DNA from: an uncultured Nitrospirales bacterium
GTDB lineage: Bacteria; Hydrogenedentota; Hydrogenedentia; Hydrogenedentales; CAILVY01
Direction: 5' to 3'
Assembly (NCBI GenBank): GCA_964474205.1
Contig: CAYYRW010000006.1
Location: forward strand, 143,772 to 207,771
DNA: 64,000 nucleotides
Shown: positions 14,296 to 60,175 of the stretch, in pieces
Layout of the letters: each line of letters starts with the position of its first letter
Numbering within the stretch: position 1 is the stretch's first letter
Notes under the pieces: generated by a model
What the model saw: only the letters and a program-made list of their open reading frames with translations
Databases searched by the model: none
What the model was told of the DNA's origin: nothing
Program-made: the position numbers and the translations under genes

Positions 14296-14356
14296 ACCCT
14301 TATCCTTTAATCGTTGTCGTTGGTTTTGGGCTGCATCCCATAACCAAAGACTACTT

Positions 14357-37394: not shown

Positions 37395-37652
37395 GACAGC
37401 CTCCCATTCCTTCACAGGCGAACATGTTCCAGGCGGAAGTGCCGCCGAGTGCGCCCTGTTTTGCCTGCCCCGGAATCTCCTCGGTTCCCGGCGCATTCGA
37501 TCACTGCAATTTTCATATTTTGCGCAGTATCGGCGCAAGAACCGAAAACCACTGAAATATATTGCATTCCCGGAAAACTTATGGAAAAATACGGTTGAAC
37601 CGTGTAAAGAGCAAAAAATTGGCAGAAATATCAAACCTTGGGAGTGGTTGCC

Positions 37653-40600
37653 ATGACAATCCAGAAGCAGGTGTTCATTATATTTTTTGCGGTTTCATTG
37701 ATGGCAGGCGGGTTGTCCTGGTCCGCCCCAGTGACCTTTAATGATCCTGCGCTGCTCGCGGCGGTTAAAACGCAATGGGAATCGGCGACGGGAGGGACGC
37801 TCAGCACCCCGCCCCAAGATACCGAACTGGCCAATCCCTTGTTCACCACGTTGACCGCCAATGGGCTGGGGATCACGGACCTGACCGGGTTACAAGCCTG
37901 TACCAGCTTGACGGAACTCAATCTGGGCTGGAACCAGATTACCAGCCTCGCTCCTATCAGTGGGCTCACAAGCCTGCTCCATCTGGACGTGGGGATGGGG
38001 GTCGATCTGATGGACAATGATATCGACCCCATGCAAACCGGCACCAATCTGATCACGGACCTATCGCCCTTGGCCGGACTGGTTAATCTGGAATACTTGA
38101 GCATAATAGGAAACACGGGGATCACGAGCATCGCCGCCATCAGCACCCTGGACAGCCTGTTCTCGCTCTGGCTGGGCTCCAATCCCATCACCAGCTTTAC
38201 CCCCCTGTCAGACGTGGCGGACACGCTGGCGCTGCTGGTGTTTATTGACAATGGCGTGAAGAATTCGGATATCCCCATCATTAACGGCTTGGTCAACCTG
38301 CAAGGACTTGGTCTTCTTGCGGAAGAAAACCTTACGGACATCAGCGGCTTAACCGGAATCAGCCCCAGTTTCATATTCGCCGTGCTAATGGCCCCCATCA
38401 CGGATATCAGCGTTGTTTCCAACTACACCAATCTGCAAATGCTGGAAGCGTCGCAGTGTCAATTAACCGTCCTTCCCGACCTGTCCGGGTTAACCGGTTT
38501 GCGGGAAGCCGGTTTTTTTGAAAATCAGATTACGGATATTTCCGGGTTGACGGGAAATACGAGTATTGAAGAATTGGACCTGGCGAAGAACCAAATTACG
38601 AGTATCAGTGCGCTGCAATCGTGCACAGGCCTGACCCAGATCAGATTGGACGGCAATCAGCTTACGGACATTCAGCCGTTGCTTGATAATGCGAATGCGG
38701 CCAATTTTGAATGGATTAGTTTGAAGGATAATCCGTTTGCAGAAGGGACGCCCTTTTGTGATGAAAACCAACTCGACCAGTTGAAAGCCCTGGCGCCTTA
38801 TGCGGGAATTGAATCCAATGCCGTTTGCGGACCCGCCTTCAATCTCACCCTATCTATAAACGGTACAGGCGAAACGTCTCCGGGACCCGGCGTAACCGCA
38901 GTCGCCCAAAATACCTGGACCTATGTGAATGCCTATCCCATTTCCGGCAGCGGCCAGGCCTTTAGCAGTTGGACCGGCGACCTCACAAGCACGCAAATGT
39001 ACACCCAGTTGTTCATGGACAGCGATAAATCCGTCACGGCAAACTTTGTGCCGGGGAATTGGACACTGACTATTAACGTAACGGGCGGGGGAGACAGCAA
39101 TACGTGGCCCAATGCGGGAACCTACTCCTACTTGAATGGGCAAACCGCCAATATAAGTTCCAACAATAACTCGTCCTCCTATTTTAACGGATGGTCTGGG
39201 GACGCCACCGGGTTTTTGCTCAGCACATCCGTCCTCATGGATGGCAACAAGACGGTGACTGCGGCCTTCGCCAGTTCGGGATATCAATTGACCCTTCATA
39301 CCCAAGGTAATGGAAATATCATGGGATTCTGGGGGAGCGGACCATTTAACTATGCGGCCGGCGCCAGTTTCGATTTACAGGCCATGGCGTACGATTCCAT
39401 ATATCGTTTTGACCACTGGACCGGGAATCTGCCCGCCGGCGCGGACCCCAATACCCCGGTGCTGCCCATCGTGATGGACCAGAACCGGGACATCACCGCC
39501 GTCTTTGTCCAGGATGCAAAAACACTCACGCTTATCATCGAAGGCGGCGGCGTCACTATCCCATCCGGTAGCGCCGCCCCCGGAACACAATATATGTATT
39601 CCACGGGACAAACCGCCTGCCTCAATGCCATGTCCTCCGCAGGCGTGGCCTTTGATCACTGGGAAGGGGATATAGGCAGTGCCAGCCCGAATAACCAAAA
39701 CATTTGTGTAACCATGGACCAGGACCGCACGCTCACCGCTGTTTTTGTGACCGCGAATTGGAATCTTACCCTTCAGGCAAACGGCAACGGCACAACCAAT
39801 CCCGTTCCCGGCGTGTATGGATATGTGAACGGAGCCTATGCGAATTTCAATTATCAACTTCTCTCCGGCGGCGGGGCCTTTTCAGGTTGGACGGGCGATA
39901 TTGATTCGGGACAGGCCCAAAATAACTGGGTCAATGTAATCATGGACCGCAACCGGACCGTCACGGCGAATTTTATCCCGGGAGACTGGTTCTTGACGCT
40001 CAATACCAGCGGTTCGTTCGGGGGCGGGACGAATCCCAACCCGGGAACGTATGCCTATTTGGACGGGCAAACCGCCACTATCAGCGCATGGTCCAATACG
40101 TCCACATATTTTAGTGGATGGACGGGCAGTATCACCGATGACACCCCGAATATCAGCGTTGTCATGGACGGCAATAAAACCGTCACCGCCAATTATGTCA
40201 GCAGCGGATATGCCTTGAACGTGAACACACAGGGTCAGGGCAACATCAATCTGAACGGATGGTATTACCTGGCCAGCGGAACACAGCCGGTGTTGAAAGC
40301 CAATGTGTGGGGCGGATGGGTGTTCAGCGAATGGACGGGAGACCTGCCCGTGGGCGCCGATGCCCACAACCCGGAATTGCCGGTCTTGATGGACCAGGAC
40401 CGCTCGATCATCGGCGTGTTCATTCAAGACTCCAAAACCTTGACCGTCATCATTGACGGTCCGGGAAGCACGAGTCCGGCGGGCAGCGCGGCCCCAGGTA
40501 CTTCCTATGAGTACAATTCCGGTCAAAACGTATGTGTTCAAGCCTTGGGAGTGGCTGAAGGCGCGTTTGAATATTGGTCCGGGGACATTGGCGGTTCCAA

Positions 40601-43256
40601 TCCCACCGGAAATACAGTCTGTGTCAACATGGATCAGGACCGCACCATCACCGCGCATTATACGGCGGCGAACTGGAGCCTGACGCTGGTGGCCTCGGGC
40701 AATGGCAGCACCAATCCAGCCCCAGGCACCTATGGCTATCTGAACGGGACTTGGGCATACTTCAGCGTGAATCTTCTTTCCGGCGGTGACGCCTTTTCTC
40801 ATTGGTCGGGAGACATAGGCGGCACTACTCCCGAGAGTTTCTGGGGTTCAATCACCATGGACCAGAACCGCACCATCACCGCCAACTTCACAGCCGGGGA
40901 GTATACCCTCACGCTCGACAAAACAGGGCCGTCCTCGGGCGGCGTATCGCCTCTCCCCGGAACCTATGCCTATCTCAATGGGCAAACCGCTCATTTGGGC
41001 GCCTCATCGAATTCCTCCGCGTATTTCGCCGGATGGTCGGGCGATGTAGACAGTGACACCCCCAGTCTCGATGTGGTTATGGAGAGCAACAAGGCCGTCA
41101 CCGCCAATTTCGCCGATTCCGGCTACCTGCTTAATGTGGGCACGGACGGCCAGGGGTGGGTCAGCCTTCCAAACACTTCGTATTTTGCCGTGGGCACGGA
41201 GCCGGTGATAAACGCCCATACTCAAAACGGCTGGGAATTCGACCATTGGTCGGGCGATTTGCCCAATGGCGCGGACCCGAATAACGCGGACCTCCCGGTG
41301 CTCATGGACCAAAACCGTACGATTACCGCCCACTTTATTCAAAACCAGCGGACCTTGACCATTATCGTTGTGGGCCAGGGCGCAACCTCTCCCGAAGGCG
41401 GGCCGGAACCGGGGATTCAACATGACTATGCGGAGGGTTCCCAAGCCTGGGTGAGCGCCGAAATGGGCGCGGCCGGCTGGGCGTTCAGCGGCTGGTCGGG
41501 CGATATCGGTTCCGCCAACCCCTCCAACCGGCATCTCTCCTTGATTATGGATCAGGACCGCACCATCATCGCCACGTATCAAGCCGCGGATTGGACGCTC
41601 ACCCTGGACTATACCGGCAATGGAAACACCTATCCCGCCCCAGGCAGCTATGGCTTTATGGATGGCGCGGAAGCCGAGGCGGTGGCCAATATTTACAATG
41701 GCGGTGATGCCTTCAACCACTGGGAAGGATTGCCTGAAGACATGGATTCCGACGAACCCGGCCATCACTTTGCCATCCACGATAATATGACCCTGACCGC
41801 GGTATTCACCCCCGGCGATTACACCCTCACCACTACCGTCGCGGGCGGTGGAACGGCTGAATATCTGTCCCATCCCGCAGGCAGCTACCAATATATGGCG
41901 GGACGGGATGCCCGTCTTGAAGTCCGTCCAGGATCCACGGTCTATTGGGGCGGGTATTCCGGCGATGTGAATACCTATGACTTCGCCTGCGCGCTGCCAA
42001 TGAACGCCAATAAAAACGTTACCATCAACCTGGGAACCTCCGGCTATGAACTGGTGGTGAATCAAATTGGCGGCGGCCTTACGAATCCCTCCGGTACATC
42101 GCGATTTGTGGCGGGCGCCACACCCGCCATTCACGCCATAGACCAGGGTTCAAGCCTCTTTGATCATTGGTCGGGTAACCTGCCGGCGGGAGTAAATCCC
42201 AATGACCGGGATGCGGTGATCCTCATGGACCAAAACCGGACGATCATCGCGAATTTCCTGGAAGCCGATTGGTATCTCTACCTCCAAGTCCAGGGCAATG
42301 GAACCATCGCCCCGGCCCCGGGGTTGTATTGGTATCTGCAGGGCAGCGCCTTTGAAGTGACCGCCACGCCCGGAGCGGACACCATGTTCCTGCGTTGGAC
42401 CGGTAATATCCCGGAGGGACAAGACCCCGCGTCGCTCACGATTTCCGGAACCATGACCCAAAACCGGGAAATCATCGCCGTGTTTGTGCCGCAAACGGTG
42501 GCCGTGCCGGATTTGTCCGGCATGAACCAGGAACAAGCCGAAGCGGTCTTGATGAGTGCGGGTTTGGTGTTGGGCATGGCGACCCAGAACTACAGTTCCA
42601 CCGTGCCCGCCGGCCAGATCATCAGTCAAAATCCCGCAGCGGGAATCTCGGTGGCGTACGGCAGTGCGGTGTCCGTCATAATCTCCCTGGGTTCGTGCTA
42701 CACGTCTATTCCGAATGTGGAGGGGCTTACCCAGGCCGCCGCACTAACCGCCCTCGCCGCCGCCAATCTTTCCGCCGGCGCGATCACCTTTGAAGTGAGT
42801 GAAACGGTTCCGGAAGGCCAGGTGATCAGCCAGAACCCCGTGTCGGGCCTGGTGGTCGAGTGCGGCACCGCGGTGGCGCTGGTGATTTCCGGCGCGGGAC
42901 CGGAGGGCGGCGAAGAAGGCGAGGAGGGCGAAGGCGGAACAGAAGGCGGAACAGAAGGCGAAACCGGCTGCCACACCGCGGACCAGGACTGCAACAATCT
43001 GGTGAACCTGTCGGAACTGCTGCGCGTGATCCAATTCTTCAATTCTGGCGGATATCACTGCGAAGCCGGCACCGAAGACGGCTATGCACCAGGCCCCGGC
43101 GGCCACAACTGTACACCGCATGCCAGCGATTACAATACCCAGGATTGGCTGATCAACCTTTCCGAACTGCTGCGCATCATCCAGTTCTTCAACTCCGGCG
43201 GATATCACTACTGCCCGGGCGAAAACACGGAGGACGGATTCTGCCCCGGTTTGTAA
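37653..43256 (+). CDS. 1,868-aa cell-surface protein: signal peptide, internalin-like LRR, ~13 InlB-B-repeat-type domains, 2 PASTA domains, acidic linker and twin dockerin-like C-terminal motifs
   Basis: ATG 37653 (MTIQKQVFIIFFAVSLMAGGLSWSAP); the track's TTG at 37638 is less likely. LRRs occupy ~37820-38780 (LTELNLGWNQITSLAPISGLTSL). Repeats of ~110-120 aa have the W(S/T)GD...NPxxVxMDQ(D/N)RT(I/V)TA(N/H)F signature from ~38830 to 42480. Two PASTA domains run ~42500-42890 (VPDLSGMNQEQAEAVLMSAGL..., IPNVEGLTQAAALTALAAANL...). A GPEGGEEGEEGEGGTEGGTEGE linker follows, then DCNNLVNLSELLRVIQFFNSGGYHC and WLINLSELLRIIQFFNSGGYHYC. Confidence 0.85.
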   Translation: MTIQKQVFIIFFAVSLMAGGLSWSAPVTFNDPALLAAVKTQWESATGGTLSTPPQDTELANPLFTTLTANGLGITDLTGLQACTSLTELNLGWNQITSLAPISGLTSLLHLDVGMGVDLMDNDIDPMQTGTNLITDLSPLAGLVNLEYLSIIGNTGITSIAAISTLDSLFSLWLGSNPITSFTPLSDVADTLALLVFIDNGVKNSDIPIINGLVNLQGLGLLAEENLTDISGLTGISPSFIFAVLMAPITDISVVSNYTNLQMLEASQCQLTVLPDLSGLTGLREAGFFENQITDISGLTGNTSIEELDLAKNQITSISALQSCTGLTQIRLDGNQLTDIQPLLDNANAANFEWISLKDNPFAEGTPFCDENQLDQLKALAPYAGIESNAVCGPAFNLTLSINGTGETSPGPGVTAVAQNTWTYVNAYPISGSGQAFSSWTGDLTSTQMYTQLFMDSDKSVTANFVPGNWTLTINVTGGGDSNTWPNAGTYSYLNGQTANISSNNNSSSYFNGWSGDATGFLLSTSVLMDGNKTVTAAFASSGYQLTLHTQGNGNIMGFWGSGPFNYAAGASFDLQAMAYDSIYRFDHWTGNLPAGADPNTPVLPIVMDQNRDITAVFVQDAKTLTLIIEGGGVTIPSGSAAPGTQYMYSTGQTACLNAMSSAGVAFDHWEGDIGSASPNNQNICVTMDQDRTLTAVFVTANWNLTLQANGNGTTNPVPGVYGYVNGAYANFNYQLLSGGGAFSGWTGDIDSGQAQNNWVNVIMDRNRTVTANFIPGDWFLTLNTSGSFGGGTNPNPGTYAYLDGQTATISAWSNTSTYFSGWTGSITDDTPNISVVMDGNKTVTANYVSSGYALNVNTQGQGNINLNGWYYLASGTQPVLKANVWGGWVFSEWTGDLPVGADAHNPELPVLMDQDRSIIGVFIQDSKTLTVIIDGPGSTSPAGSAAPGTSYEYNSGQNVCVQALGVAEGAFEYWSGDIGGSNPTGNTVCVNMDQDRTITAHYTAANWSLTLVASGNGSTNPAPGTYGYLNGTWAYFSVNLLSGGDAFSHWSGDIGGTTPESFWGSITMDQNRTITANFTAGEYTLTLDKTGPSSGGVSPLPGTYAYLNGQTAHLGASSNSSAYFAGWSGDVDSDTPSLDVVMESNKAVTANFADSGYLLNVGTDGQGWVSLPNTSYFAVGTEPVINAHTQNGWEFDHWSGDLPNGADPNNADLPVLMDQNRTITAHFIQNQRTLTIIVVGQGATSPEGGPEPGIQHDYAEGSQAWVSAEMGAAGWAFSGWSGDIGSANPSNRHLSLIMDQDRTIIATYQAADWTLTLDYTGNGNTYPAPGSYGFMDGAEAEAVANIYNGGDAFNHWEGLPEDMDSDEPGHHFAIHDNMTLTAVFTPGDYTLTTTVAGGGTAEYLSHPAGSYQYMAGRDARLEVRPGSTVYWGGYSGDVNTYDFACALPMNANKNVTINLGTSGYELVVNQIGGGLTNPSGTSRFVAGATPAIHAIDQGSSLFDHWSGNLPAGVNPNDRDAVILMDQNRTIIANFLEADWYLYLQVQGNGTIAPAPGLYWYLQGSAFEVTATPGADTMFLRWTGNIPEGQDPASLTISGTMTQNREIIAVFVPQTVAVPDLSGMNQEQAEAVLMSAGLVLGMATQNYSSTVPAGQIISQNPAAGISVAYGSAVSVIISLGSCYTSIPNVEGLTQAAALTALAAANLSAGAITFEVSETVPEGQVISQNPVSGLVVECGTAVALVISGAGPEGGEEGEEGEGGTEGGTEGETGCHTADQDCNNLVNLSELLRVIQFFNSGGYHCEAGTEDGYAPGPGGHNCTPHASDYNTQDWLINLSELLRIIQFFNSGGYHYCPGENTEDGFCPGL

Positions 43257-43526: not shown

Positions 43527-44981
43527 ATGCTGTTTAATTCACTTCATTTCGCCGTCTTCTTCCCGGTGGTGGCGGCCGTTTATTTCGCCTTGCCCTGGCG
43601 CTGGCGGTGGGCGGGGCTGCTGGCCGCCAGCTATTACTTTTACATGGTGTGGGAGCCGGGGTACGTGCTGCTGCTCCTATGCTCCACGCTGACCGTGTAT
43701 GGCACGGCGCTCCTCATGGCGAACACGCCCGGCCAACAAGCCCGCCGGCGCTATTTGCTGCTGAGCCTGGTCATTAACCTTGGTCTGTTGTTTGTCTTCA
43801 AGTATTTCAATTTCTTCACGGACACGATGCGCCCCCTTCTGGCCCTGCTCGGGCTTCCGGAACTACTCCCGCACAGCCGCCTGCTGCTTCCCGTCGGGAT
43901 ATCGTTTTATACCTTTCAAGCCCTGGCCTACAGCATCGAGGTGTACCGGGGCCAGCATCCGCCGGAACGGCATCTGGGCCGTTTCGCGCTGTATGTGGCC
44001 TTCTTCCCCACCGTGCTTTCGGGCCCCATCGAGCGGCCGCAACGATTACTCCCGCAACTGACGGAACATTCTGCGTTCGACTATGTCCGGGTGACGGACG
44101 GCCTGAAACTCATGGTATGGGGCCTGTTTCAAAAGGTGGTGGTGGCGGACCATCTGGCCTCGTTGGTGGATACCGTGTATTCTGACCCCGCGCGCTTTAC
44201 CGGCCCCATGGTGCTGCTGGCCTCCATCCTGTTCGCCTTCCAGCTCTATTGCGATTTCGCGGGCTACAGCGATATCGCCATAGGCGCGGCCCAGGTGTTG
44301 GGAATCCGGGTGATGGACAATTTCCGGCGTCCGTATTTCGCGGCCTCCGTGGCCGAATTCTGGCGGCGCTGGCACATCTCGCTGTCCACATGGTTTCGCG
44401 ATTACCTCTACATTCCGCTGGGCGGGAACCGTGTGCCGCTGCCGCGCTGGAGCCTGAACATCCTGGCGGTGTTCTTGCTGTGCGGCCTTTGGCACGGCGC
44501 GAACTGGACCTTTGTTGTGTGGGGGGGGCTGCATGGAATGTATATCGTTCTTGGGCGGTGGACCGCACCGGGACGCGAACGCCTCACCCGCCATATTCCC
44601 GCATTTCTCCACCAAGGGCTGCGCATCGCCGGCACCTTCACCCTGGTCTGGTTCGCGTGGGTTTTTTTTCGCGCGGAGACCTTGGGCAAGGCATTCACCC
44701 TCTTTGAATGCATGGGCAGGGGCTGGGGCGGCGCACTGTCCGCGCTGGCGGCGGGCAATCCCGGCGGCGCACTGGATTTATGGGGCTGGGAATTGTTTTT
44801 ATCCATGGCGTTGATTGGATTGGTCCTGGCCATCCAAATGGTCCAGGCGCGCATCCCTATCCGTCAACGGCTGCACCTGGCGCCATGGTGGCTCCGTTGG
44901 AGCTTGTATAGCGCCGTGCTTTGGATGATTTTTCTGCTCGGGGCCCTGCGGCAAACCGAGTTTTACTACTTTCAATTCTAG
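43527..44981 (+). CDS. MBOAT-family membrane-bound O-acyltransferase (AlgI/DltB-like)
   Basis: Multi-TM protein with a conserved His block WRRWHISLSTWFRDYLYIPLGGNR. Confidence 0.9.
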   Translation: MLFNSLHFAVFFPVVAAVYFALPWRWRWAGLLAASYYFYMVWEPGYVLLLLCSTLTVYGTALLMANTPGQQARRRYLLLSLVINLGLLFVFKYFNFFTDTMRPLLALLGLPELLPHSRLLLPVGISFYTFQALAYSIEVYRGQHPPERHLGRFALYVAFFPTVLSGPIERPQRLLPQLTEHSAFDYVRVTDGLKLMVWGLFQKVVVADHLASLVDTVYSDPARFTGPMVLLASILFAFQLYCDFAGYSDIAIGAAQVLGIRVMDNFRRPYFAASVAEFWRRWHISLSTWFRDYLYIPLGGNRVPLPRWSLNILAVFLLCGLWHGANWTFVVWGGLHGMYIVLGRWTAPGRERLTRHIPAFLHQGLRIAGTFTLVWFAWVFFRAETLGKAFTLFECMGRGWGGALSALAAGNPGGALDLWGWELFLSMALIGLVLAIQMVQARIPIRQRLHLAPWWLRWSLYSAVLWMIFLLGALRQTEFYYFQF

Positions 44982-45002
44982 ACCAAGGAGAACGATCGCA
45001 TC

Positions 45003-45923
45003 ATGATGCGGCTGGCATGGAAAGCGGCCCTGCTCCTCGCCCTCAACGCGGGAATCGGGCTGGCCGTAGTGGCGATTCATGACGCGCGCCTCCACTACAC
45101 GCGCTGGGAAACGGATTCGCTGTTGCTGACCATGCCGGACCATGCCGCTTTTGACGCGGTATTCCTGGGCAGTTCGCACACGTATCTGTTTTCCCGGTTG
45201 AAACAGCATCATGAGATTACCGAACGGGAATTGGGGATGCACGTTTGGAATCTGGCCTTGCCCTCGGGCGGCGGACTCCGTCCGGCGCGTTTCTTCCTGG
45301 ACTATTTCTGGGAACAAGGCAATACGGCGAAACAGGTGGTGTATTTCCTGGAACCGTTTGTATTTTTCTCCTCCGGAGCGAATGACGCCCATAAATTCAT
45401 TTACACCGAACCCTTGCGGGCGTCTTTTCTCAAAAAACTCGTCCTGGAACGCTACCCCCTCAGAAGCATCTTGACCTATATCCGCTCGAAATTCACCCGG
45501 GCCTGGTTTTTCCAGGCGGCCGAGCCGATGGACGCCCAAACGTATACCTTCAGCCCGGATACCATCACCCCGGAACGGATTGCCTTCCGCATCCAAACGC
45601 TGTATGGCGACGGCCTGCGCAATGACTACTTCCACCGCTATGCCCGCGAATTTGTCCGGATTGCGGAACAGTGCCGCCAGCGGAACGTGCCGCTGACCGT
45701 GATATTCCCTCCGACCTTGCTCGGGCCGGAACCCGGCGCGCCCCGTCTGATGCCATGGCTGAACCAGCAACAGCGCGAATTCGGCTTTGCCGTTCATGAC
45801 TTCACCACGGCCATGCCCGATTACCGGTATTACTACAACCTGGACCATCTCAACACGGACGGCGTGACGGAATTCATGCGCCGTTTTGTCAGACCGGCCC
45901 TGTCGCCGAAAACCGGTCCATGA
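45003..45923 (+). CDS. AlgJ/DltD-like periplasmic partner of the MBOAT acyltransferase (SGNH-like fold)
   Basis: Signal anchor MMRLAWKAALLLALNAGIGLAVVA, then DAVFLGSSHTY (GxSxT-like). It lies 21 nt after the MBOAT gene. Confidence 0.55.
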   Translation: MMRLAWKAALLLALNAGIGLAVVAIHDARLHYTRWETDSLLLTMPDHAAFDAVFLGSSHTYLFSRLKQHHEITERELGMHVWNLALPSGGGLRPARFFLDYFWEQGNTAKQVVYFLEPFVFFSSGANDAHKFIYTEPLRASFLKKLVLERYPLRSILTYIRSKFTRAWFFQAAEPMDAQTYTFSPDTITPERIAFRIQTLYGDGLRNDYFHRYAREFVRIAEQCRQRNVPLTVIFPPTLLGPEPGAPRLMPWLNQQQREFGFAVHDFTTAMPDYRYYYNLDHLNTDGVTEFMRRFVRPALSPKTGP

Positions 45924-45998
45924 CCGGTGCCGGGGACGGGCTAAAGTGGTATCGGGGCGGGTGAATTCTCTATACTTGCCTTTCCATGCGGATGTAAG

Positions 45999-47123
45999 GT
46001 GAATTCATTGAGTCTTGTAACACGCTATATCATGAAGCAGATTTGGGTGCCGGCGCTGATTGCGCTGGTGGTGATCAGCTTTGTTTTGGTGGCGGGCGCC
46101 ATTCAGAATGAGGTGAAAGCCCTGCTGAAAGACGTGCCCATCGCCCAGATTACCATGATCGACATTTCGTGGATTTCGTTTTATTCCCTGCCCACCCTGG
46201 CCGGGTTCCTTTTCCCGGTGACCTTTCTGATGGCCATTATGCTGACCTTCAGCCGGATGGCCCAAAATAACGAAATTACCGCCCTGAAGTCCGCCGGCAT
46301 CCCCCTCAAACGCCTCATTCTGCCGGTGGTCGTGATGGGCATCGTCCTGAGCGGAGTGTGCTTTCTGGCGCTGGACTACGGGAAACCCTGGGCCTATAAA
46401 CAACTCAACAAGCTCGTGCGCAGCGATCTCCCGCTCCGCGTCACCATCGATATGCTCCCAACCGGCATCATGCATGAATATGGGGATTGGCGGATTTATG
46501 TCGGCAAGAAAGAACGGGATGGCACCCTGAAAAACATCGTGGTGCTTCAGCCCTTGCCCGACGGACGCGCCAACGCCTTCTACGCGGAATCCGCACGGCT
46601 CGTCAAGAAAGACGGCGTCTCCTCCCTGGAAATGGAACACGGCCATTATATCCAGGCGAAGAAGAAAGACCTGGTGCCGCGCACCACCTTCGAGTTGGGC
46701 AAGCGCACCGTGCCCCCCCTGAAGCCCCGGGAACTGCAGGGGGAACGCAAGGGCATGAGCATGGAGGAATTGTTCTCGGAGGAACGCGAAACGGAACAAA
46801 AATACCTTGAAACAAAAGCCATCCCCGTCGAACGCGATCTGCGCGCCTTGCGCGTGGAACTCGCCCGCCGTTTCGGATTCCCCTTGATGTGCCTCGCCGT
46901 CTGCATCGTGGGGGCCCCCATCGGAGCGCGTTCTCCCAAGACCGGCCGCTCCTTTAACTTCGCCATTGGGCTGGCCATTCTCACCGTGTATTTTGTGCTC
47001 ACCAAGGCCACCGAGCCGCGCGGGCTCCTGCCCTTCTGGCAGGTGATCCTGATCACCCAGGCCCCCAATCTGCTCCTGGGCGGATTGGGCACCTATCTCA
47101 TCTGGCGGGTGGACCGCGTATGA
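45999..47123 (+). CDS. lptF: LPS export ABC permease LptF/LptG family (YjgP/YjgQ)
   Basis: GTG start. VTRYIMKQIW... is typical of LptF/G N-termini. Six TM segments plus a periplasmic beta-jellyroll region. Confidence 0.8.
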   Translation: MNSLSLVTRYIMKQIWVPALIALVVISFVLVAGAIQNEVKALLKDVPIAQITMIDISWISFYSLPTLAGFLFPVTFLMAIMLTFSRMAQNNEITALKSAGIPLKRLILPVVVMGIVLSGVCFLALDYGKPWAYKQLNKLVRSDLPLRVTIDMLPTGIMHEYGDWRIYVGKKERDGTLKNIVVLQPLPDGRANAFYAESARLVKKDGVSSLEMEHGHYIQAKKKDLVPRTTFELGKRTVPPLKPRELQGERKGMSMEELFSEERETEQKYLETKAIPVERDLRALRVELARRFGFPLMCLAVCIVGAPIGARSPKTGRSFNFAIGLAILTVYFVLTKATEPRGLLPFWQVILITQAPNLLLGGLGTYLIWRVDRV

Positions 47124-48208
47124 CTCTGCTCGACCGATATCTTACCCGCCGCGTCCTGCTCAATCTCCTGCAATTGATGACCGCCATGATCTTCATTTAT
47201 GTGGCCATCGACTTTTTAACGGCCCGGCAGACGAACATTTCAAAATACGACATCCCCTTCTTGATGGTCCTCAAGTTCTATTGTGCACAAATACCCATGG
47301 TCCTCTTCCAATACCAGACGGCGGCCCTGGCGGTCCTGGTGGCCGGGTTGATGGTGCTCGGAAAAGCCGCGCAAGACCAGGAAATCACCGCCGCCCTCGC
47401 CGGCGGGATCAGCCTGCGCCGCATTGTGCGCGCCCCCGTGGCCGCCGCCCTGCTCGTGGCCGTGGCGGCCTTCTTTATCGAGGACACGCTGGGCGTACGC
47501 GCGGCACAGTGGCTGGCGCGCATGGACCGGGAGTATTTTTCCCAGTTTCATAAACCGGACAACCCGGGCATCAGTTGGACCAATCTGGGCGGCGAATGGA
47601 CCTGCCACATTCTCAAATTCAATCATGACGCCCTGACGGGACAGGACGTGTACATCCATTCCATCGCGCGCGATGTGGTGAAGGAGATTCGCGCAAAACG
47701 CATTTATTGGGATGAAACCAAGAGCCAGTGGATGCTCGAAGACGGGCGCTGGTTCACCTTCAACCCCAATCAGGAATGGGAACAGAAAGTGGACCGCATC
47801 ACCCAAATCCCCGCCCCCTTTTCAGAGAGCCCCGCCGAACTGTTCGCCCTCGAAAAACCCCCCACCCAAAAATCCCTGGCCGCCCTCCGGCGCGATTTGC
47901 GCCATGCCGGCGCCATGGGCATGCCCGTAAATGCGCACTGGGTCGATTTCCACGCCAAACTCGCACGGCCCGCTCTGTGCTTCGTCATGATCTGGCTCGC
48001 CATTCCATTCGCCATCCGGCTCCGCCGCGGCGGCATAATGATGGGATTCGGACTCAGCATCGGCATCGGCCTCGCCTACCTCATGCTCTTCTACATCACC
48101 ATGGGCCTCGGCCACCTTGACAAACTCACCCCCGTCATCGCCGCATGGTTCGCCAACGCCGTATTCCTCATCACAGGGCTCATCCTCTTCCGGAAAACAC
48201 CCACCTGA
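47120..48208 (+). CDS. lptG: LPS export ABC permease LptG/LptF family (second paralogue)
   Basis: MTLLDRYLTRRVLLNLLQLMTAMIFIYVAIDFL. It overlaps the previous gene by 4 nt. Confidence 0.8.
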   Translation: MTLLDRYLTRRVLLNLLQLMTAMIFIYVAIDFLTARQTNISKYDIPFLMVLKFYCAQIPMVLFQYQTAALAVLVAGLMVLGKAAQDQEITAALAGGISLRRIVRAPVAAALLVAVAAFFIEDTLGVRAAQWLARMDREYFSQFHKPDNPGISWTNLGGEWTCHILKFNHDALTGQDVYIHSIARDVVKEIRAKRIYWDETKSQWMLEDGRWFTFNPNQEWEQKVDRITQIPAPFSESPAELFALEKPPTQKSLAALRRDLRHAGAMGMPVNAHWVDFHAKLARPALCFVMIWLAIPFAIRLRRGGIMMGFGLSIGIGLAYLMLFYITMGLGHLDKLTPVIAAWFANAVFLITGLILFRKTPT

Positions 48209-48454: not shown

Positions 48455-51145
48455 ATGGATTTGTGTAGGCCGGATACCAAACGATGGATTCCGGAGCTAT
48501 GGGCCAAGACCGATTGTTCAGGTGATACGTTTTCTTACCATCCCTTATTGTTTCACATGCTTGACGTTGCGGCGGTAGCTGGCTTTGTTTGGGATTATCA
48601 TCTGAATTCCAGATTTCGCAATAGAATAGAGCATATACTTCAAGTTACGGAACCTCGCACGTTTATCATGTTTATTGCGGGTGCTCATGATATAGGCAAG
48701 GCAAACCCAAGTTTTCAAAAACGAATTATTAAAATCGCAGAAGGATCAGGACTTCCGTTCTCCAAAAATGATCAAGAGCGACCTCACGGATTCATCAGTG
48801 CCCATGTTTTGGGTGAGTTTCTTGGCGCGGGCTCGGTTTCAGCCCTATTGGGACAGATTGCAGGCGGGCACCATGGTGTCTTTCCACAGTCAATGTATCT
48901 TCAAATGGGAAGAGACTCGATGGGGAATAACGAATGGAAAAATGCTCGGCAAAATCTATTGAGGGAACTTGCCAAAATAGTAGGTTTTGATCATAATAAG
49001 ATAGCCCAATCCCAAAAAGAAATATCGGACCCGATAGTCATTCCGATGCTTGCTGGATTAATTTCGGTCGTGGATTGGATTGGGTCGAATCAAGAGTTTT
49101 TCCCGTGCGCAGCAAAGCGGGGAGAATCCTATTCACTTTGTGCGGAGGAATACTGGGAGAAAGCGAAAAAACAGGCAAAAGAGGCTCTTGAAACACTTGG
49201 CTGGCTACCCAGCGTCACTTATGCACAAGAGGTCGCATTCAAAGATGTCTTTCATGAGTTTGTGCCAAATGCTTTACAGCATACGGTAATCAAACTTATA
49301 TCAAAACGAGATTCGCCCTATTGCATTATTATAGAAGCTCCCATGGGCCATGGAAAAACAGAAGCGGCGCTTTTCGCGGCGGATCTTGCCCTGTGCCGGG
49401 GATTTGCTCGGGGTATGTATGTTGCCATGCCGACTCAAGCCACAGGTAATGCAATGTTCAAGCGGGTATTGGACGATTACCTAAAACATCGTGGGCATCA
49501 GGGCAAGCTGAATCTACAACTCATTCATGGCGACGCATTACTTGCTCAAATAGCAGAAGTCAAAGAGGGTGAAATTCCAAAGTTCACGCCTAACGATATC
49601 GGCGAGGAAGAAGGCGATGTGGAAGCGCAGGCTTGGTTTACTGCGAAGAAGCGGCCATTGTTAGCGCCATTTGGTGTTGGTACTATCGACCAAAGTCTTC
49701 TGAGTGTTCTTCAGACCAAACACTGGTTCGTGCGACTGTTCGGTTTATCAGGAAAAGTTATCATTTTCGACGAGGTCCATGCCTACGATGCCTACATGAG
49801 CACAATTATTGAGCGCCTCCTACACTGGCTCGCCGAACTGGACTGTACAGTCATTCTTCTGTCGGCAACACTTCCAGAAGCCAAGCGCAAGTCACTCGCA
49901 AAGGCCTATTCTGGCCGCGAGGATGTAGAATACAAACCTTATCCGCGTATTACACTGGCTCACCCACGACATTACCCCGTTGAACAAACGGATGAAAAGA
50001 CAGTCTGCGCGGAAGTTCCGATAAACGATACGCGTCAGGTTAACCTGCTATTCGGAAAAACCGACCTGGAATCCCTGAAAGGAACTCTGGCTGAGAGACT
50101 AGAGTATGGCGGGTGCGCCGCCGTGATCTGCAACACGGTCAGCCGGTCCATAGAGGTCTATAAACACTTACGGGATAATCTACAGAATACGGAGTGTTCG
50201 CTTTTCCATGCCCGCACGCTTCAGATGTGGCGGCGTGAGCGCGAAGAGGAAGTTTTGCTTAAATTTGGCAAGCGAAGTCCAAAGGACAGACCTCAGCGTG
50301 CCGTACTTGTCGCTACGCAGGTGATTGAGCAGAGCCTTGATCTGGATTTTGACTTCATGGTCTCGGAGATCGCCCCCGTAGACTTGTTGCTCCAACGTTC
50401 GGGAAGACTTCACCGCCATAATCGTCAGCGTCCGCTGAAGCTGGAAAAACCACAGTTCCTTGTGCTCTGTGACGCCGAAAAGGCTGGACCTCCGCCCGAG
50501 TCTTTCGGCACAAGTATAGAGTTTGTTTACGACCGCTATATTCTTCTCCGCACTTGGTTGACACTGCGAGAGCGGGACAAAATTGAAGTTCCAACTGAAA
50601 TCGAGGCGTTCGTAGAAGCGGTGTATGGGTTTGAAGTTACCCCCAACAATGGTGATTGGCTTGTGGCTCTGTCTGATTCAAAACACAATATGGAATTCGA
50701 ACGCGCTGAATCTGAAAATTCAGCATTACGATTACTGGTCTCAAAACCCAAAGTTCCATCCGATCTCATCGATCAATTTAATGAGCAGTTGGTAGATGAT
50801 GATGACCCTGAAATCCATAAGACCGTTAGGGCGGCTACACGGGAAGGCGACCCCTCGATCACAGTCGTGATGCTGCCAGCGAACACAGCACTCTTAAGCG
50901 AGCCCAACATTCCCGAAATCAGAAGAATGCTCGACCAATCGGCTAAGATCAGCCATCGTGGCGTATTTCATGGAATATGTACGAAAGGGGTAACACCCAG
51001 GGAATGGGCAAAAAATGCCCATCTGCGTCATGCCCGCCTCTTGCGGCTAGATGAGAAAAATTATGGCCGAGTGGAAAATTACACATTGCTGGCAGATGAG
51101 AAGGTGGGCATAGTGATACTTAAGGAGGGTGAAAATTATGGCTGA
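48455..51145 (+). CDS. cas3: CRISPR-associated helicase/nuclease Cas3 (HD + SF2 helicase), type I-E
   Basis: The HD domain has LLFHMLDVAAV and HDIGKANPSFQ. Helicase motifs: EAPMGHGKTEAAL (Walker A), IFDEVHAYD (DExH), SATLP. Confidence 0.95.
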   Translation: MDLCRPDTKRWIPELWAKTDCSGDTFSYHPLLFHMLDVAAVAGFVWDYHLNSRFRNRIEHILQVTEPRTFIMFIAGAHDIGKANPSFQKRIIKIAEGSGLPFSKNDQERPHGFISAHVLGEFLGAGSVSALLGQIAGGHHGVFPQSMYLQMGRDSMGNNEWKNARQNLLRELAKIVGFDHNKIAQSQKEISDPIVIPMLAGLISVVDWIGSNQEFFPCAAKRGESYSLCAEEYWEKAKKQAKEALETLGWLPSVTYAQEVAFKDVFHEFVPNALQHTVIKLISKRDSPYCIIIEAPMGHGKTEAALFAADLALCRGFARGMYVAMPTQATGNAMFKRVLDDYLKHRGHQGKLNLQLIHGDALLAQIAEVKEGEIPKFTPNDIGEEEGDVEAQAWFTAKKRPLLAPFGVGTIDQSLLSVLQTKHWFVRLFGLSGKVIIFDEVHAYDAYMSTIIERLLHWLAELDCTVILLSATLPEAKRKSLAKAYSGREDVEYKPYPRITLAHPRHYPVEQTDEKTVCAEVPINDTRQVNLLFGKTDLESLKGTLAERLEYGGCAAVICNTVSRSIEVYKHLRDNLQNTECSLFHARTLQMWRREREEEVLLKFGKRSPKDRPQRAVLVATQVIEQSLDLDFDFMVSEIAPVDLLLQRSGRLHRHNRQRPLKLEKPQFLVLCDAEKAGPPPESFGTSIEFVYDRYILLRTWLTLRERDKIEVPTEIEAFVEAVYGFEVTPNNGDWLVALSDSKHNMEFERAESENSALRLLVSKPKVPSDLIDQFNEQLVDDDDPEIHKTVRAATREGDPSITVVMLPANTALLSEPNIPEIRRMLDQSAKISHRGVFHGICTKGVTPREWAKNAHLRHARLLRLDEKNYGRVENYTLLADEKVGIVILKEGENYG

Positions 51146-52772
51146 GTATAATTTGATTGAAGAACCTTGGATTCCGTGCATCGACCTTGAGAATAACCGG
51201 CTCGAATACGGCATACGTGACACACTACTGAAAGCTCATGAGTTGCGTGAGATTTGCGACGATTCGCCGTTGGTCACGGTGGCTATACATAGACTGCTTT
51301 TAGCAGTGCTCTATCGGGGGTTAAATGGGCCCAAAGAATTTTCATCATGGAAGAAACTATACGCAAAAGGCTCATTTATCGAACATACGATTCAAGAGTA
51401 TTTTGATAAGTGGAAGCAACGTTTTGATATCCTGGCGGAAAACCATCCATTTTTCCAGATGGGACAATTTGAGACAAAGAAAGCAACCTCTGTTAATCGT
51501 CTTGCAACGGAATGTGCAAGCGGCAACAACGCGACCCTTTTTGACCATAGTAGTGACGAAGAAGAAGTTTTCTGGCTGCCTGCCAGAACTGCGAAATACT
51601 TGGTTGCCTGTCAGTCATTTGCTCTAGGTTTTGGAAAGAGCGGAAATGCAACGATAAATGGAAAAGACGAGACATTGCCCTATTCTTCTGATGCGATAGC
51701 GTTGCGCGGTATAAATATTTGGCTTCAGGGTTCAAATCTTTTCGAAACCCTGATGGTCAATCTGGTTCCCACCGAAGACGACTCATTGCCACCCTGGGAA
51801 CTGGAAAATTCTAACACGCACCGTGACAGACTTCAGGGTAAGAATAAGAAAGCGGTCACCTCCCTGGGCGTTGTAGATCGTTTAACCTGGCAAAGTCGGC
51901 TCATACGACTTATTCCTACTAATTCGACAATTTCAAAGATGTATTTCACACAGGGTCGTTCTGCGGATAAATCCACAGGAGATCCCATGAAAGTCTATCG
52001 TACATCGAGGGTGGAAGGGGTTTCAGCCTTACCGCTCAATAGCGGTAAGGCAGCATGGCGGGATGCTCATTCAATCCTCACAATTCCAAAAGCAGGCAGC
52101 AATGAGCGAAGGCCTGAATGCTTCAATCTTATAGATCGTGCTCGTTCCGCAGCCGTTATCGGTATTTCAAAGCCATTTATGGCTCAGATCGTTGGTTTAG
52201 CATCAGCACCCGGAAAGTCCGGAAAGTTTCTTCTTTGGCGGCACGAACGGATGCCTGTATCTGCCGCCTTATTAGCCGATGTTGACCTGATCGAACGGCT
52301 CGGAGGTTTGCTCCAGATAGCAGAATACGCTGCGTTTGAACTCAACAGCAGAACGAGGCGGATCGCTACACTCTACCTATCACCCAATAGCGACTCTCAA
52401 GGCGGCCACCATCCCGAAAAAGATAAAAGTGCAAAACTTGTTGAGTCAATCGATCCCTCGCCCGCCTACTGGGCTCGGTTGGAGAAACACTTTTTTAGTC
52501 TATTAGAAAATCTCCCCAACGATTGGGATGAGACCAATGGAGACTGGAGACCGGATAATCAGCAAGAAGCTACCCGAATGTGGCGTATCCATGTGAAGGA
52601 AGAAGCCCAACGAGCACTAGAAGAAAGCATTCGGACGCTTGGCACGACCGCGCGGGCGATTCAGGCCATCGCACGCGTTCGTACCGATTTCAACGATGAT
52701 GACCTCAAGCCCCCCCCGCAGAAAGCGGGCATGGCGAAAGGAAAAGAGAAAGGAGGAAAGAAGAAAAGATGA
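51138..52772 (+). CDS. cse1: Cse1/CasA (Cas8e) Cascade large subunit
   Basis: MAEYNLIEEPWIPCIDLENNR... is the typical Cse1 N-terminus. The start ATG 51138 has TAAGGAGG 9 nt upstream. It sits between cas3 and cse2. Confidence 0.85.
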   Translation: MAEYNLIEEPWIPCIDLENNRLEYGIRDTLLKAHELREICDDSPLVTVAIHRLLLAVLYRGLNGPKEFSSWKKLYAKGSFIEHTIQEYFDKWKQRFDILAENHPFFQMGQFETKKATSVNRLATECASGNNATLFDHSSDEEEVFWLPARTAKYLVACQSFALGFGKSGNATINGKDETLPYSSDAIALRGINIWLQGSNLFETLMVNLVPTEDDSLPPWELENSNTHRDRLQGKNKKAVTSLGVVDRLTWQSRLIRLIPTNSTISKMYFTQGRSADKSTGDPMKVYRTSRVEGVSALPLNSGKAAWRDAHSILTIPKAGSNERRPECFNLIDRARSAAVIGISKPFMAQIVGLASAPGKSGKFLLWRHERMPVSAALLADVDLIERLGGLLQIAEYAAFELNSRTRRIATLYLSPNSDSQGGHHPEKDKSAKLVESIDPSPAYWARLEKHFFSLLENLPNDWDETNGDWRPDNQQEATRMWRIHVKEEAQRALEESIRTLGTTARAIQAIARVRTDFNDDDLKPPPQKAGMAKGKEKGGKKKR

Positions 52773-53314
52773 GCCTCGATGCGAGACAAAAAAACTTCAT
52801 AGGCTACCTGCTGAATCTTGCAAAAGAAGGGCAGGAAGACCGGGGTGCGCTCGCTGACCTGCGGAGCGGCCTGGGAAAGAAACCTGGCGAGATGTCCCAC
52901 GTTCACAAGTATGTTGTGCCCTATTTGCCAGAGGACAAATACAAAGATCGTTGGTATTACCTAATTGCGACACTTTTTGGGCTATACCCAAAGCGTCGCA
53001 AGGGGTATAGCCTGGGAGCGGCATTTTGCCCGCTAAAACAAAACAGTGACAGCATGGAGGCACGTTTTGTTGCCTTGCTTAACGCACACCCAGATGATCT
53101 TGGTGATCATTTACGGCATGTAATTAGTCTTCTTAAAGCAAAGGGGCAACCATTGGATTGGTTCCTGTTGTTTAGTGATTTGCTTCACTGGGACCACCAG
53201 GATGGATATGTCCAATTGGGTTGGGCACGGGATTTTTATAAAGGTTTCGAAAAACCAAGTGAAAACAAAAACAACATAAATGACGAAGACTTACAAAAAC
53301 AGGAGAAGGAATAA
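52769..53314 (+). CDS. cse2: Cse2/CasB (Cas11e) Cascade small subunit
   Basis: 181 aa, basic and alpha-helical. Assigned by position between cse1 and cas7e, with 4-nt overlap. Confidence 0.8.
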   Translation: MSLDARQKNFIGYLLNLAKEGQEDRGALADLRSGLGKKPGEMSHVHKYVVPYLPEDKYKDRWYYLIATLFGLYPKRRKGYSLGAAFCPLKQNSDSMEARFVALLNAHPDDLGDHLRHVISLLKAKGQPLDWFLLFSDLLHWDHQDGYVQLGWARDFYKGFEKPSENKNNINDEDLQKQEKE

Positions 53315-53318
53315 AGCC

Positions 53319-54728: not shown

Positions 54729-55351
54729 GTGAAATCCATACCCTTCTTATACGGCTTGAAGGGCCTATGCAATCATGGGGCTATCGCAGCCGTTTTGACT
54801 GCCGCGACACCGCACTTGAGCCGACCCGTAGCGGAATGATCGGCTTGATCTGTGCCGCCATGGGGATTGCCCGAGGTGAGGATATTTCTCGATTCGATGC
54901 GATTCGCATGGGTGTCCGCGTAGACCAACAAGGTAGGCCCGAATGCGACTACCAAACTGCACTTGACGTAATTAAGGCAGATGGAAAAGGAAAAGACACC
55001 GTCCAGTCTTGGCGTGATTACCTTGCCGACGCTTCATTCACAGTTGGTTTGGAGTCGAGGGATCTTAACCTGTTGTGCGAAATAGCAGGGGCTCTACAGT
55101 CGCCCATTTGGCCGTTATTTCTGGGACGAAAAGCATTCCCGCTTTCGGTTCCTCCTATCTGTGAAAAGGACCCTATCAAGCCCGGCGTTTTAGAGGACCA
55201 TCTTTTGAGCGGAACAACAAATGATCGTGTTGTTTTAGAAGCAAGTGATGGTGAAAGAAGTCAAAATGACTGGCCTTTGTGTTTTGGTGAGCGTCACTTT
55301 AAGCCACGCGCTCTTCACACGGCGTTTGACAAGAAAGGAGACCATGAATGA
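54725..55351 (+). CDS. cas5e: Cas5e/CasD
   Basis: MSEIHTLLIRLEGPMQSWGYRSRFDCRDTALEPTRSGMIGLICAAMG is the Cas5e N-terminal signature (LRLxGPMQSWG). Confidence 0.9.
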   Translation: MSEIHTLLIRLEGPMQSWGYRSRFDCRDTALEPTRSGMIGLICAAMGIARGEDISRFDAIRMGVRVDQQGRPECDYQTALDVIKADGKGKDTVQSWRDYLADASFTVGLESRDLNLLCEIAGALQSPIWPLFLGRKAFPLSVPPICEKDPIKPGVLEDHLLSGTTNDRVVLEASDGERSQNDWPLCFGERHFKPRALHTAFDKKGDHE

Positions 55352-56136: not shown

Positions 56137-56137
56137 T

Positions 56138-59919: not shown

Positions 59920-60175
59920 ACGGAATTTGCCACAAGAGAGCCCAAAGAGCACAGAGTGTTTACCGTGCCTGGGGGGGGAGAACGGAATTTACCACAAGAG
60001 AGCCCAAAGAGCACAGAGTGTTTGCCGTGCTGGGGAGGAAAGAACGGAGCTTGCCACAAGAGAGCACAAAACGCGCAGAGTGTTTCCCGTGCTGGGGGGG
60101 AAGAACGGAGCTTGCCACAAGAGAGCACAAAGCGCACAGAGTGTTTGCCGTGCCGGGGGAGGGAGGGGGCAGTCC
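59891..60175 (+). repeat. Decayed CRISPR trailer: five ~61-nt units of degenerate repeat plus near-identical pseudo-spacers
   Basis: Units start at 59891, 59958, 60020, 60082 and 60143. The repeat part (gtttgccgtgctgggggggaagaacgg) is a mutated form of the canonical repeat. The spacer parts are pairwise near-identical (aatttgccacaagagagcccaaagagcacagagt x2, agcttgccacaagagagcacaaa(a/g)cgc(g/a)cagagt x2). Confidence 0.7.

Follow-up and report, generated by a model that had tools for sequence, protein, structure and literature searches.

A dockerin-like C-terminal module of two predicted F-hands in secreted proteins of Hydrogenedentota

A long open reading frame (ORF) of an uncultured bacterium ends in two closely similar peptide motifs, and the question raised by this locus is whether such a pair is the trace of a local DNA duplication or the visible part of a functional element. 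The motifs, DQDCNNLVNLSELLRVIQFFNSGGYHC (encoded at 42981-43061) and SDYNTQDWLINLSELLRIIQFFNSGGYHYC (43125-43214), lie at the end of a plus-strand ORF in a stretch of 64,000 nucleotides (hereafter, the window: positions 143,772 to 207,771 of contig CAYYRW010000006.1, assembly GCA_964474205.1) from an uncultured Nitrospirales bacterium that is placed by GTDB in Hydrogenedentota. Both motifs belong to a 96-residue module at the C-terminus of the encoded protein. The best available description of this module is that of an uncatalogued, dockerin-like docking module consisting of two F-hands, with dockerin membership failing on both profile score and fold significance. Functionally, the module can be read as a common docking or anchoring handle that acts in a dockerin-like manner, a reading with a probability of about 0.5; we infer the docking, as well as the identity of the receptor, from the family, its position, the predicted fold and the cohesin context.

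Size of the family and age of the duplication

The 96-residue tail retrieves 183 homologues from a word-indexed protein collection, all with E <= 0.01 and reaching E = 2e-48, far beyond chance. Among the 120 homologues listed, all have E values of at most 2.6e-28 and lengths of at most 167 amino acids (aa), many are named 'hypothetical protein, partial', 81 cover essentially the whole module and most cover both repeats. Nearly all of the named matches come from metagenome-assembled genomes (MAGs) of Candidatus Hydrogenedentes/Hydrogenedentota, often several per MAG, and two come from Kiritimatiellia. When the profile of an alignment of 82 module sequences is run against 1.84 billion cluster representatives, 3,010 proteins are matched at E <= 1e-3, 2,522 at E <= 1e-10 and 1,410 at E <= 1e-30. 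A scan with one genome per species yields more than 526 pattern matches, with 511 of these confirmed as loci. The best 80 of the 511 loci are found in only 6 MAGs (39, 19, 14, 4, 2 and 2 loci, respectively), and at least 39 module genes are present in a single Hydrogenedentota MAG. The original prediction had left it open whether the motif marks a protein family or occurs only in this protein with poor conservation; the family data speak clearly for the former, the module being both widespread and strongly conserved.

The similarity of the two repeats is real: both quoted peptides are located near the end of the ORF, and the reported DNA identity of about 85% is borne out by the strings that begin at 43011 and 43161, which agree at 42 of 48 positions (87.5%), and by a 19-codon core that is identical at 48 of 57 positions (84%), the codon differences comprising five synonymous and two non-synonymous ones. 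No further copies of the motif are found in the six reading frames of the window. An identity of 84-88% between the cores in DNA, together with the absence of a second copy elsewhere in the 64 kb, is what would be left behind if this one gene had recently undergone a neutral internal duplication, or if the repeat were functionless and due to chance or low complexity. Such an origin has a negligible probability given that both repeats, with their repeat-specific loops, are conserved in the 3,010 representatives from several phyla, that 10 invariant and 26 nearly invariant columns are found in the alignment of 82 paralogues and orthologues with unrelated N-terminal parts, and that a compact fold is predicted by AlphaFold2 with a mean predicted local distance difference test score (pLDDT) of 96.7. 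A neutral recent duplication in particular is excluded by the family-wide conservation of both repeats.

The qualification of the pair as recently duplicated does not survive either, because both repeats, each with its own type of loop, are kept in every homologue. Across the 82 members, the two repeats of the same protein have a mean core identity of 0.69, compared with 0.67 between the first repeats and 0.71 between the second repeats of different proteins. Since the identity of the repeats within proteins is about the same as that between proteins, and the repeat-specific loops are universal, the duplication predates the family. The similarity of such anciently duplicated repeats therefore reflects constraint.

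Several observations concern the database records that carry the module. MAGs titled 'uncultured Nitrospirales bacterium' (CAYXPO01, with loci such as L001, L003 and L005, as well as CAZLII01 and CAYMLC01) are rich in modules, whose identity to the window copy reaches 92%, and one MAG with such a title contributes 19 of the best 80 loci; the module being otherwise typical of Hydrogenedentota, these record titles may be mislabelled. The modules and their Glu/Gly-rich linkers are often located at contig ends or split from their passengers (for example, L020, L022, L028, L032 and L046; also L082, 6938-10414); apparently, metagenome assemblies and gene calls break at this repeated tag. Such breaks would explain the many short entries named as partial hypothetical proteins. 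In the literature searched, no description was found under the motif strings or under Hydrogenedentes/Hydrogenedentota combined with dockerin or cohesin. A catalogue of 179 Hydrogenedentota genomes calls the phylum poorly understood, and the words cohesin, dockerin, surface and secretion are absent from its text (PMC11406978).

Predicted architecture and nearest relatives of the module

The module and its parts are as follows (residue numbers here and below refer to the 96-aa module).

42966-43253, plus strand: the 96-residue C-terminal module
42969-42992, plus strand: extra cysteine pair C2/C9 (GCHTADQDC) around the repeat-1 loop, seen in a small sub-lineage and common to P0001
42972-43094, plus strand: repeat 1, from the model and the 82-sequence alignment; the EF-hand and Dockerin_1 matches of relatives fall here
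43095-43115, plus strand: inter-repeat loop with C49 (codon at 43110); the C32 codon is at 43059
43116-43253, plus strand: repeat 2, from the model and the alignment; the protein ends one residue past the hairpin motif TEDGFC93PG

The true repeat unit is about 45 residues long and comprises a loop, a helix and a hairpin. In the alignment, the consensus of the first half is H-[ST]-A-D-Q-N-G-D-x-x-I-S-L-S-E-L-L-R-V-I-Q-F-F-N-S-G-G-Y-H-C-...-G-T-E-D-G-Y-A-P-G, and that of the second half is C-x-P-H-x-S-D-Y-N-P-Q-D-W-x-I-S-L-S-E-L-L-R-L-I-Q-F-F-N-S-G-G-Y-H-x-C-P-...-T-E-D-G-F-C-P-G. Repeat 1 of the window copy consists of the loop D6-Q-D8-C-N10-N-L-V13-N14-L-S-E17, a helix (residues 15-26) and the hairpin GGYHC32...TEDGYAPG, with oxygen ligands at the EF-hand positions 1, 3, 5, 9 and 12 and the hydrophobic V13 at position 8. 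Family-wide, this loop has 12 residues, D-x-[ND]-x-[DN]-G-x-I-x-x-x-E, with a frequent Gly at position 6; D6 and E17 are present in all 82 sequences, N/D8 in 71 and D/N10 in 79, and I/V13 is conserved. In repeat 2 of the window copy, the loop P-H-x-S-D55-Y-N-T-Q-D60-W61-x-I-N-L-S-E67 is followed by a helix (65-76) and the hairpin GGYHYC83...TEDGFC93PG; here, too, the loop residues are nearly invariant (D55 in 82, D60 in 76, W61 in 80 and E67 in 81 of the 82 sequences). The protein terminates with ...TEDGFCPGL, the stop codon occupying 43254-43256.

The AlphaFold2 model computed from the alignment reaches, besides its high mean pLDDT, a predicted template modelling score (pTM) of 0.86, with 94 of the 96 residues at or above 90; the alignment behind it is deep and of little diversity (effective number of sequences, 2.5). 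It comprises a loop (1-14), a helix (15-26), a hairpin (30-32/40-42), a second loop (43-64), a second helix (65-76) and a second hairpin (80-82/92-94), and the same fold is modelled with a pLDDT of 95-98 when the module is part of the longer protein P0263. Because no helix precedes either loop, each unit is modelled as an F-hand, that is, a Ca2+-type loop with an exiting helix, followed by a beta-hairpin, rather than as a helix-loop-helix EF-hand. The analogy that had been drawn between the motif and a single F-hand thus stands for repeat 1, where a canonical EF-hand or dockerin loop leads into a helix with no entering helix before it. Judging from the loop residues, the module is probably Ca2+-dependent.

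The hairpins contain a motif of their own. T-E-D-G-[YF] occurs in both (its E-D-G residues are encoded at 43074-43082 and 43230-43238 in the window) and is conserved like the Ca-type loops, with E37, D38 and G39 each present in 81 of the 82 sequences, and E89, D90 and G91 in 81, 82 and 74, respectively. His3/His52 and His31/His81 are conserved in the module as well, and a second cation or ligand site may be present.

Cysteines are likewise distributed in a regular manner. C32 and C49 are present in all 82 aligned sequences, C83 in 79 and C93 in 78; among 254 module instances, C32 and C49 occur together in 251, and the pair C83/C93 is complete in 218, absent from 34 and incomplete in 2 (Fisher p = 6e-40). 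This conservation, along with the joint gain and loss of C83 and C93, points to the disulfides C32-C49 and C83-C93, which probably staple the fold. The description of the motif pair as bracketed by cysteines is to be corrected: the cysteines shared by the family follow each helix, and the extra pair C2/C9 of the window copy is rare (both present in 7, only one in 3 and neither in 244 of the 254 instances; Fisher p = 1e-11). A third disulfide, C2-C9, would be expected in the sub-lineage to which the window copy belongs. In a 2,552-aa leucine-rich repeat (LRR) protein of Candidatus Hydrogenedentota (P0121/P0279) with four modules (residues 927-1023, 2038-2130, 2338-2431 and 2457-2552), C83 and C93 are missing from the two internal modules and retained in the two terminal ones.

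What is the module related to? At E < 0.1, 59 of the 82 members touch the Pfam family EF-hand_6, 43 touch EF-hand_1 and 14 touch Dockerin_1 (PF00404). Among five members examined, only P0060 passes the Dockerin_1 cut-off (27.2 bits against 22.9), with both repeats aligned, whereas the family consensus scores 11.6 bits against the same cut-off and 20-23 bits against EF-hand models (the EF-hand families considered being PF00036, PF13405 and PF13499) with cut-offs of 25-26; by profile score, it falls outside of both families. The EF-hand signature of a 12-residue loop with ligands at positions 1, 3, 5, 9 and 12 is found in repeat 1 and not in repeat 2, and the entering helix of an EF-hand is absent before both loops in the AlphaFold2 model. 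In NCBIfam, no model matches the module consensus or the divergent members. The 'YbcJ/S4-like' names given to some members at JGI, as well as matches to S4_2, GTP-cyclohydrolase and FliH, were rejected as noise below threshold that arises from the ELLR helix or the acidic linker.

The alignment profile yields marginal matches of repeat 1 to calmodulin-type sequences in the PDB (best E = 0.0025), and a local hhalign comparison with four classical dockerins of related gene clusters aligns repeat 1 only, in register (P = 4e-4, probability 35%). In a Foldseek search of the PDB, dockerin entries account for 14 of the 25 chains listed (5m2s_B, 4dh2_D, 4fl4, 5g5d_B, 2vn5_B, 4uyp_B, 2ccl_B, 5nrm_B, 8x39 and 4uyq_B), with query-normalised template modelling (TM) scores of 0.35-0.43, target-normalised TM scores of at most 0.54 and root-mean-square deviations of 4-5.5 A; a single EF-hand protein is listed, the calmodulin chain 9o48_E, with a query-normalised TM score of 0.23. 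Given this enrichment, dockerins are the nearest known fold, but no single match is significant.

Type I dockerins consist of two EF-hand-like Ca2+ motifs with symmetric helices that confer a dual binding mode (PMC12484212). The module, as modelled, shares with them two tandem F-hand segments devoid of an entering helix, and near-identical helices in both repeats, the feature on which the dual binding mode of dockerins is based (PMC12484212). It also resembles dockerins in being usually C-terminal behind a flexible linker, in occurring on many unrelated secreted proteins per genome, and in its surroundings, namely cohesins in the same genomes, adaptor-like proteins that combine cohesin and module, and clustering with cohesin-anchor genes. 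The differences are, however, substantial. The module has about 96 aa compared with about 60-70 aa, its repeats are 50 residues apart, a beta-hairpin with T-E-D-G-[YF] and cysteines follows each helix, unlike in the solved dockerins matched, and the repeat-2 loop is one residue longer. Dockerins usually have Asp at loop position 12, whereas the module has Glu, as in EF-hands. With EF-hands, the module also shares the repeat-1 ligands D, D/N, D/N, S/N/D and E at positions 1, 3, 5, 9 and 12, and it differs from them in being extracytoplasmic, cysteine-rich and free of an entering helix. The proposal of a lineage-specific dockerin variant is accordingly to be amended: the module is dockerin-like, but it is not restricted to one lineage, occurring also in Kiritimatiellia and in one bacterium of the candidate phyla radiation (CPR), and it is not formally a dockerin.

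Position, cargo and candidate receptors

In the window, the module is the last part of a multidomain protein.

37638-43256, plus strand: mechanically called ORF with a TTG start; the module is at its 3' end
37653-37730, plus strand: Sec-type signal peptide MTIQKQVFIIFFAVSLMAGGLSWSAP, predicted from sequence (Kyte-Doolittle 12-residue maximum of 2.86 in the first 45 aa)
37734-38759, plus strand: internalin-like LRR region (LRR_4, E = 8.6e-25, 7 stretches; LRR_8, E = 8e-10)
38835-42497, plus strand: about 14 divergent InlB B-repeat (Flg_new_2, PF18998) domains (E = 9.7e-83, 14 stretches)
42498-42899, plus strand: two PASTA domains (PF03793; E = 4.3e-27, 2 stretches)
42900-42968, plus strand: acidic Glu/Gly-rich linker PEGGEEGEEGEGGTEGGTEGETG

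The true start is likely to be the ATG at 37653, which gives a protein of 1,867 aa, and the signal peptide is called from hydrophobicity rather than by a dedicated predictor. In the NCBIfam scan, internalin models match the LRR region partially and below the cut-off. The B-repeat array forms a long stalk, and a 12-bp tandem repeat (42930-42964) lies within the Glu/Gly linker. No hydrophobic stretch is present at the C-terminus of the 1,867-aa protein, in particular, none of the hydrophobic helices with a basic tail that are seen with PEP-CTERM, LPXTG and similar signals; a transmembrane or sortase-type anchor was accordingly rejected for this protein.

The layout of the window protein recurs throughout the family with different cargo. 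Upstream of the module, 55 sampled carriers contain 55 Pfam families, including LRR, Flg_new_2, PASTA, Ig-like, beta-helix, subtilase (S8), M14 carboxypeptidase, GH25, cadherin and Calx-beta domains. A hydrophobic N-terminus is present in 88 of 131 complete carriers, and Glu plus Gly make up a median of 40% of the 40 residues that precede it, compared with 19% overall. Of 267 carriers, 244 end no more than 5 residues after their last module, and in the other 23 the distance is larger; modules also occur directly after the signal peptide (P0185, P0026, P0030 and P0098), internally and in tandem arrays of two to four, in some cases on transmembrane-anchored proteins (P0130 and P0132), and one protein with a tandem array (P0196) comes from Candidatus Buchananbacteria, a CPR bacterium.

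The near-strict terminal position, on dozens of unrelated Sec-exported cargos per genome, would also be expected of an export or sorting domain that is read, and possibly removed, by an outer-membrane translocon or a sortase-like enzyme; a sorting signal was part of the second alternative in the original prediction. The precedent is the T9SS (type IX secretion system) C-terminal domain, a cleaved outer-membrane export signal with a beta-sandwich fold (PMC4804311, PMC8545088). The module is comparable to this domain of Bacteroidota in that the terminal 80-100 aa or so are common to dozens of unrelated Sec-exported surface proteins, and its folding and disulfide formation would take place in the periplasm, in the way that T9SS C-terminal domains acquire their fold ahead of translocation. 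The host is, moreover, a diderm with LptF/LptG, and large surface proteins need a route through the outer membrane. Nevertheless, as a pure signal the module is disfavoured by the copies that follow a signal peptide, are internal or form tandems, including those on proteins that end in a transmembrane anchor. CPR bacteria, one of which carries the module, are not known to possess an outer membrane. The predicted alpha/beta fold with Ca-type loops is not the T9SS beta-sandwich (PMC4804311), and no Por_Secre_tail-type, T9SS or other sorting model is matched in the Pfam and NCBIfam scans. Export or sorting is therefore an improbable primary role.

For a docking handle, the question is what the handle binds. 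Three cohesin domains (PF00963) are encoded in the window, in two transmembrane-anchored proteins.

14357-15346, minus strand: protein of 329 aa that comprises a signal peptide, two cohesin domains (PF00963; E = 1.1e-21, 2 stretches; residues about 21-150 and 151-283), a C-terminal transmembrane helix and a basic tail
5902-14364, minus strand: 2,820-aa surface protein with a cohesin domain (E = 1.2e-11, residues 2538-2661), a Glu/Gly linker and a transmembrane helix

Both proteins end in a transmembrane helix followed by basic residues, as had been noticed at the outset for the other large surface protein and its anchor. The 329-aa anchor is a candidate receptor for the module. Near the C-terminus of the 2,820-aa protein, there is a near-threshold classical dockerin stretch (Dockerin_1, 21.5 bits against 22.9), and the cohesins of the anchor may serve this dockerin of the giant protein instead. 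In the window, the gene of the anchor is directly followed by that of the giant protein, and in the one homologous locus examined, on a metagenome contig (L081, 6404-16694), a cohesin anchor is again directly followed by a giant gene for 3,071 aa. The 2,820-aa protein also carries BNR, two FGE-sulfatase, peptidase C13 and CarboxypepD_reg domains.

A direct connection between cohesin and module is seen in four carriers in which the two are fused (P0188, P0263, P0189 and the ORF of L064). In P0188 and P0263, a signal peptide precedes a cohesin that scores above the Pfam cut-off, and a Glu/Gly linker then leads to the module. On two unrelated contigs with a GC content of 60% (L083-L085) and 63% (L086), the gene for a cohesin-module fusion stands last among four cohesin paralogues, in scaffoldin-like clusters of uncultured bacteria:

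L083, 5802-10885 (also L084 and L085): cluster of single-cohesin paralogues, the four cohesins of L083 lying at 7514-10885
L086, 1141-6670: cluster of single-cohesin paralogues

The other three paralogues of each cluster end in a transmembrane helix and a basic tail. Because the module ends one cohesin paralogue where a transmembrane anchor ends the others, it fills the membrane-anchor slot; this position is compatible with a role in anchoring or docking and with a hierarchy of the adaptor type, and does not tell what the ligand is. One or two small genes for a signal peptide plus a classical dockerin accompany these clusters, and in L083 a larger protein of 535 aa also combines a dockerin with TSP3-like repeats.

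The leading candidate for the receptor, albeit a tentative one, is a cognate cohesin with a membrane anchor. Several findings weigh against the reading as a dockerin-like handle. At the level of the module itself, most of the EF-hand and Dockerin_1 matches of family members are below the gathering scores and cover repeat 1 only, the repeat-2 loop (S-D-Y-N-P-Q-D-W in the family) has 13 residues, one more than a canonical EF-hand loop, and the Foldseek search of the PDB returned no significant fold match (best E = 0.75). The window copy has no match to PF00404, an EF-hand or any other Pfam or NCBIfam model at E <= 1; its failure to match EF-hand and dockerin models is explained by the extra cysteine in its loop. 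At the level of the receptor, the classical dockerins in the same clusters and in the giant protein of the window are the more obvious cohesin ligands. The two-cohesin anchor has only 12 detected homologues, in a search that reaches only relatives sharing exact 5-residue words, versus thousands of module carriers. When the 3-kb flanks of 80 module loci are scanned with a narrow cohesin hidden Markov model (HMM), no cohesin is detected, and a broader HMM detects one in 1 of the 80 loci (L064), as part of a fusion with the module. Physical linkage of the module to cohesins is hence the exception. The AlphaFold2 model of P0263 (pTM 0.42), in which the module shows no sign of docking on the cohesin of the same protein, is uninformative about docking, the cohesin being poorly modelled (pLDDT 55-74). 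No cohesin is found in the neighbourhood of P0018, and a search limited to sharers of exact words found no homologues of the P0263 cohesin.

The scarcity of detectable cohesin anchors in the face of thousands of carriers would be accounted for if the module bound, in a Ca2+-dependent manner, a non-protein component of the envelope or matrix (sugars of lipopolysaccharide (LPS) or capsule, exopolysaccharide or peptidoglycan), or itself, and thus acted as an anchor comparable to S-layer homology (SLH) or cell-wall-binding modules, with no cohesin involved. All evidence for a common handle applies equally to such binding. The near-invariant acidic T-E-D-G-[YF] could form an extra cation or sugar site, tandem arrays are present on transmembrane-anchored proteins of other phyla where no cohesin was seen, and, as a weak hint, a pair of genes resembling those for polysaccharide acylation (MBOAT/DUF1574) adjoins the module gene in the window. 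Conversely, the nearest relatives of the module in fold and sequence are protein-binding dockerins, fusions of the module to cohesins recur, as does its presence within clusters of cohesin and dockerin genes, and no carbohydrate-binding family is matched. On balance, a non-protein ligand or self-association appears unlikely, less so than a sorting function and slightly more so than a cohesin receptor.

If the module is a dockerin-like handle, its operation could be envisaged as follows. The cargo, which in the window would be an adhesin-like stalk of LRR, B-repeats and PASTA domains, is exported via Sec; the exported module would then fold with Ca2+ and form two disulfides, or three in the window copy. 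The flexible acidic Glu/Gly linker and the module would tether the cargo to a shared receptor in the cell envelope, with the near-identical helices of the two repeats offering a quasi-symmetric binding face. The receptors would be membrane-anchored cohesin proteins of the same genomes. By extension, and with the same reservation as for the cohesin receptor, a new class of dockerins could form, together with anchored cohesins, a non-cellulolytic system of surface display in Hydrogenedentota, with relatives in Kiritimatiellia and CPR. In each cell, dozens of adhesins, proteases and glycosidases would be arranged by this system, to which the cohesin-module adaptors would lend a cellulosome-like hierarchy. 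In a more radical variant, the module may stand for a new route by which proteins are exported and attached through a domain at their C-terminus.

Whatever the ligand, a tag of about 96 residues that is present in at least 39 secreted proteins of one genome and in 3,010 clusters overall defines the surface proteome of Hydrogenedentota, an uncultured, globally distributed phylum. With no Pfam or NCBIfam model available, current annotation misses the module; a module profile would improve annotation and explain the assembly breaks. If the module is indeed a handle of the dockerin type, cohesin-dockerin assembly would extend to a new class of modules and to non-cellulolytic diderms, a simple rule would predict which proteins are displayed on the surface, and protein engineers would gain a compact, disulfide-stapled and probably Ca2+-switched docking pair.

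Other features of the window

Downstream of the module gene, the region 43527-48208 encodes an MBOAT O-acyltransferase and a protein with a weak DUF1574 match, which together resemble a pair for alginate acetylation, as well as LptF/LptG. The presence of LptF/LptG and MBOAT/DUF1574 indicates a diderm with LPS and, possibly, an acylated exopolysaccharide.

A type I-E-like CRISPR-Cas system occupies 48455-57118 and 58062-58823 and includes Cas3 (HD and helicase), Cse1, Cas7-like CT1975, Cas5, Cas6e-like CRISPR_assoc and Cas1. The cas genes are followed by a CRISPR array with the 29-nt repeat GTTTTCCCCACGCGTGTGGGGATGAACCG and a periodicity of 61 bp. Between this array and a Rex-like gene (CoA_binding and Put_DNA-bind_N), the intergenic region 59910-60159 consists of about four copies of a 62-bp unit (87% matches).

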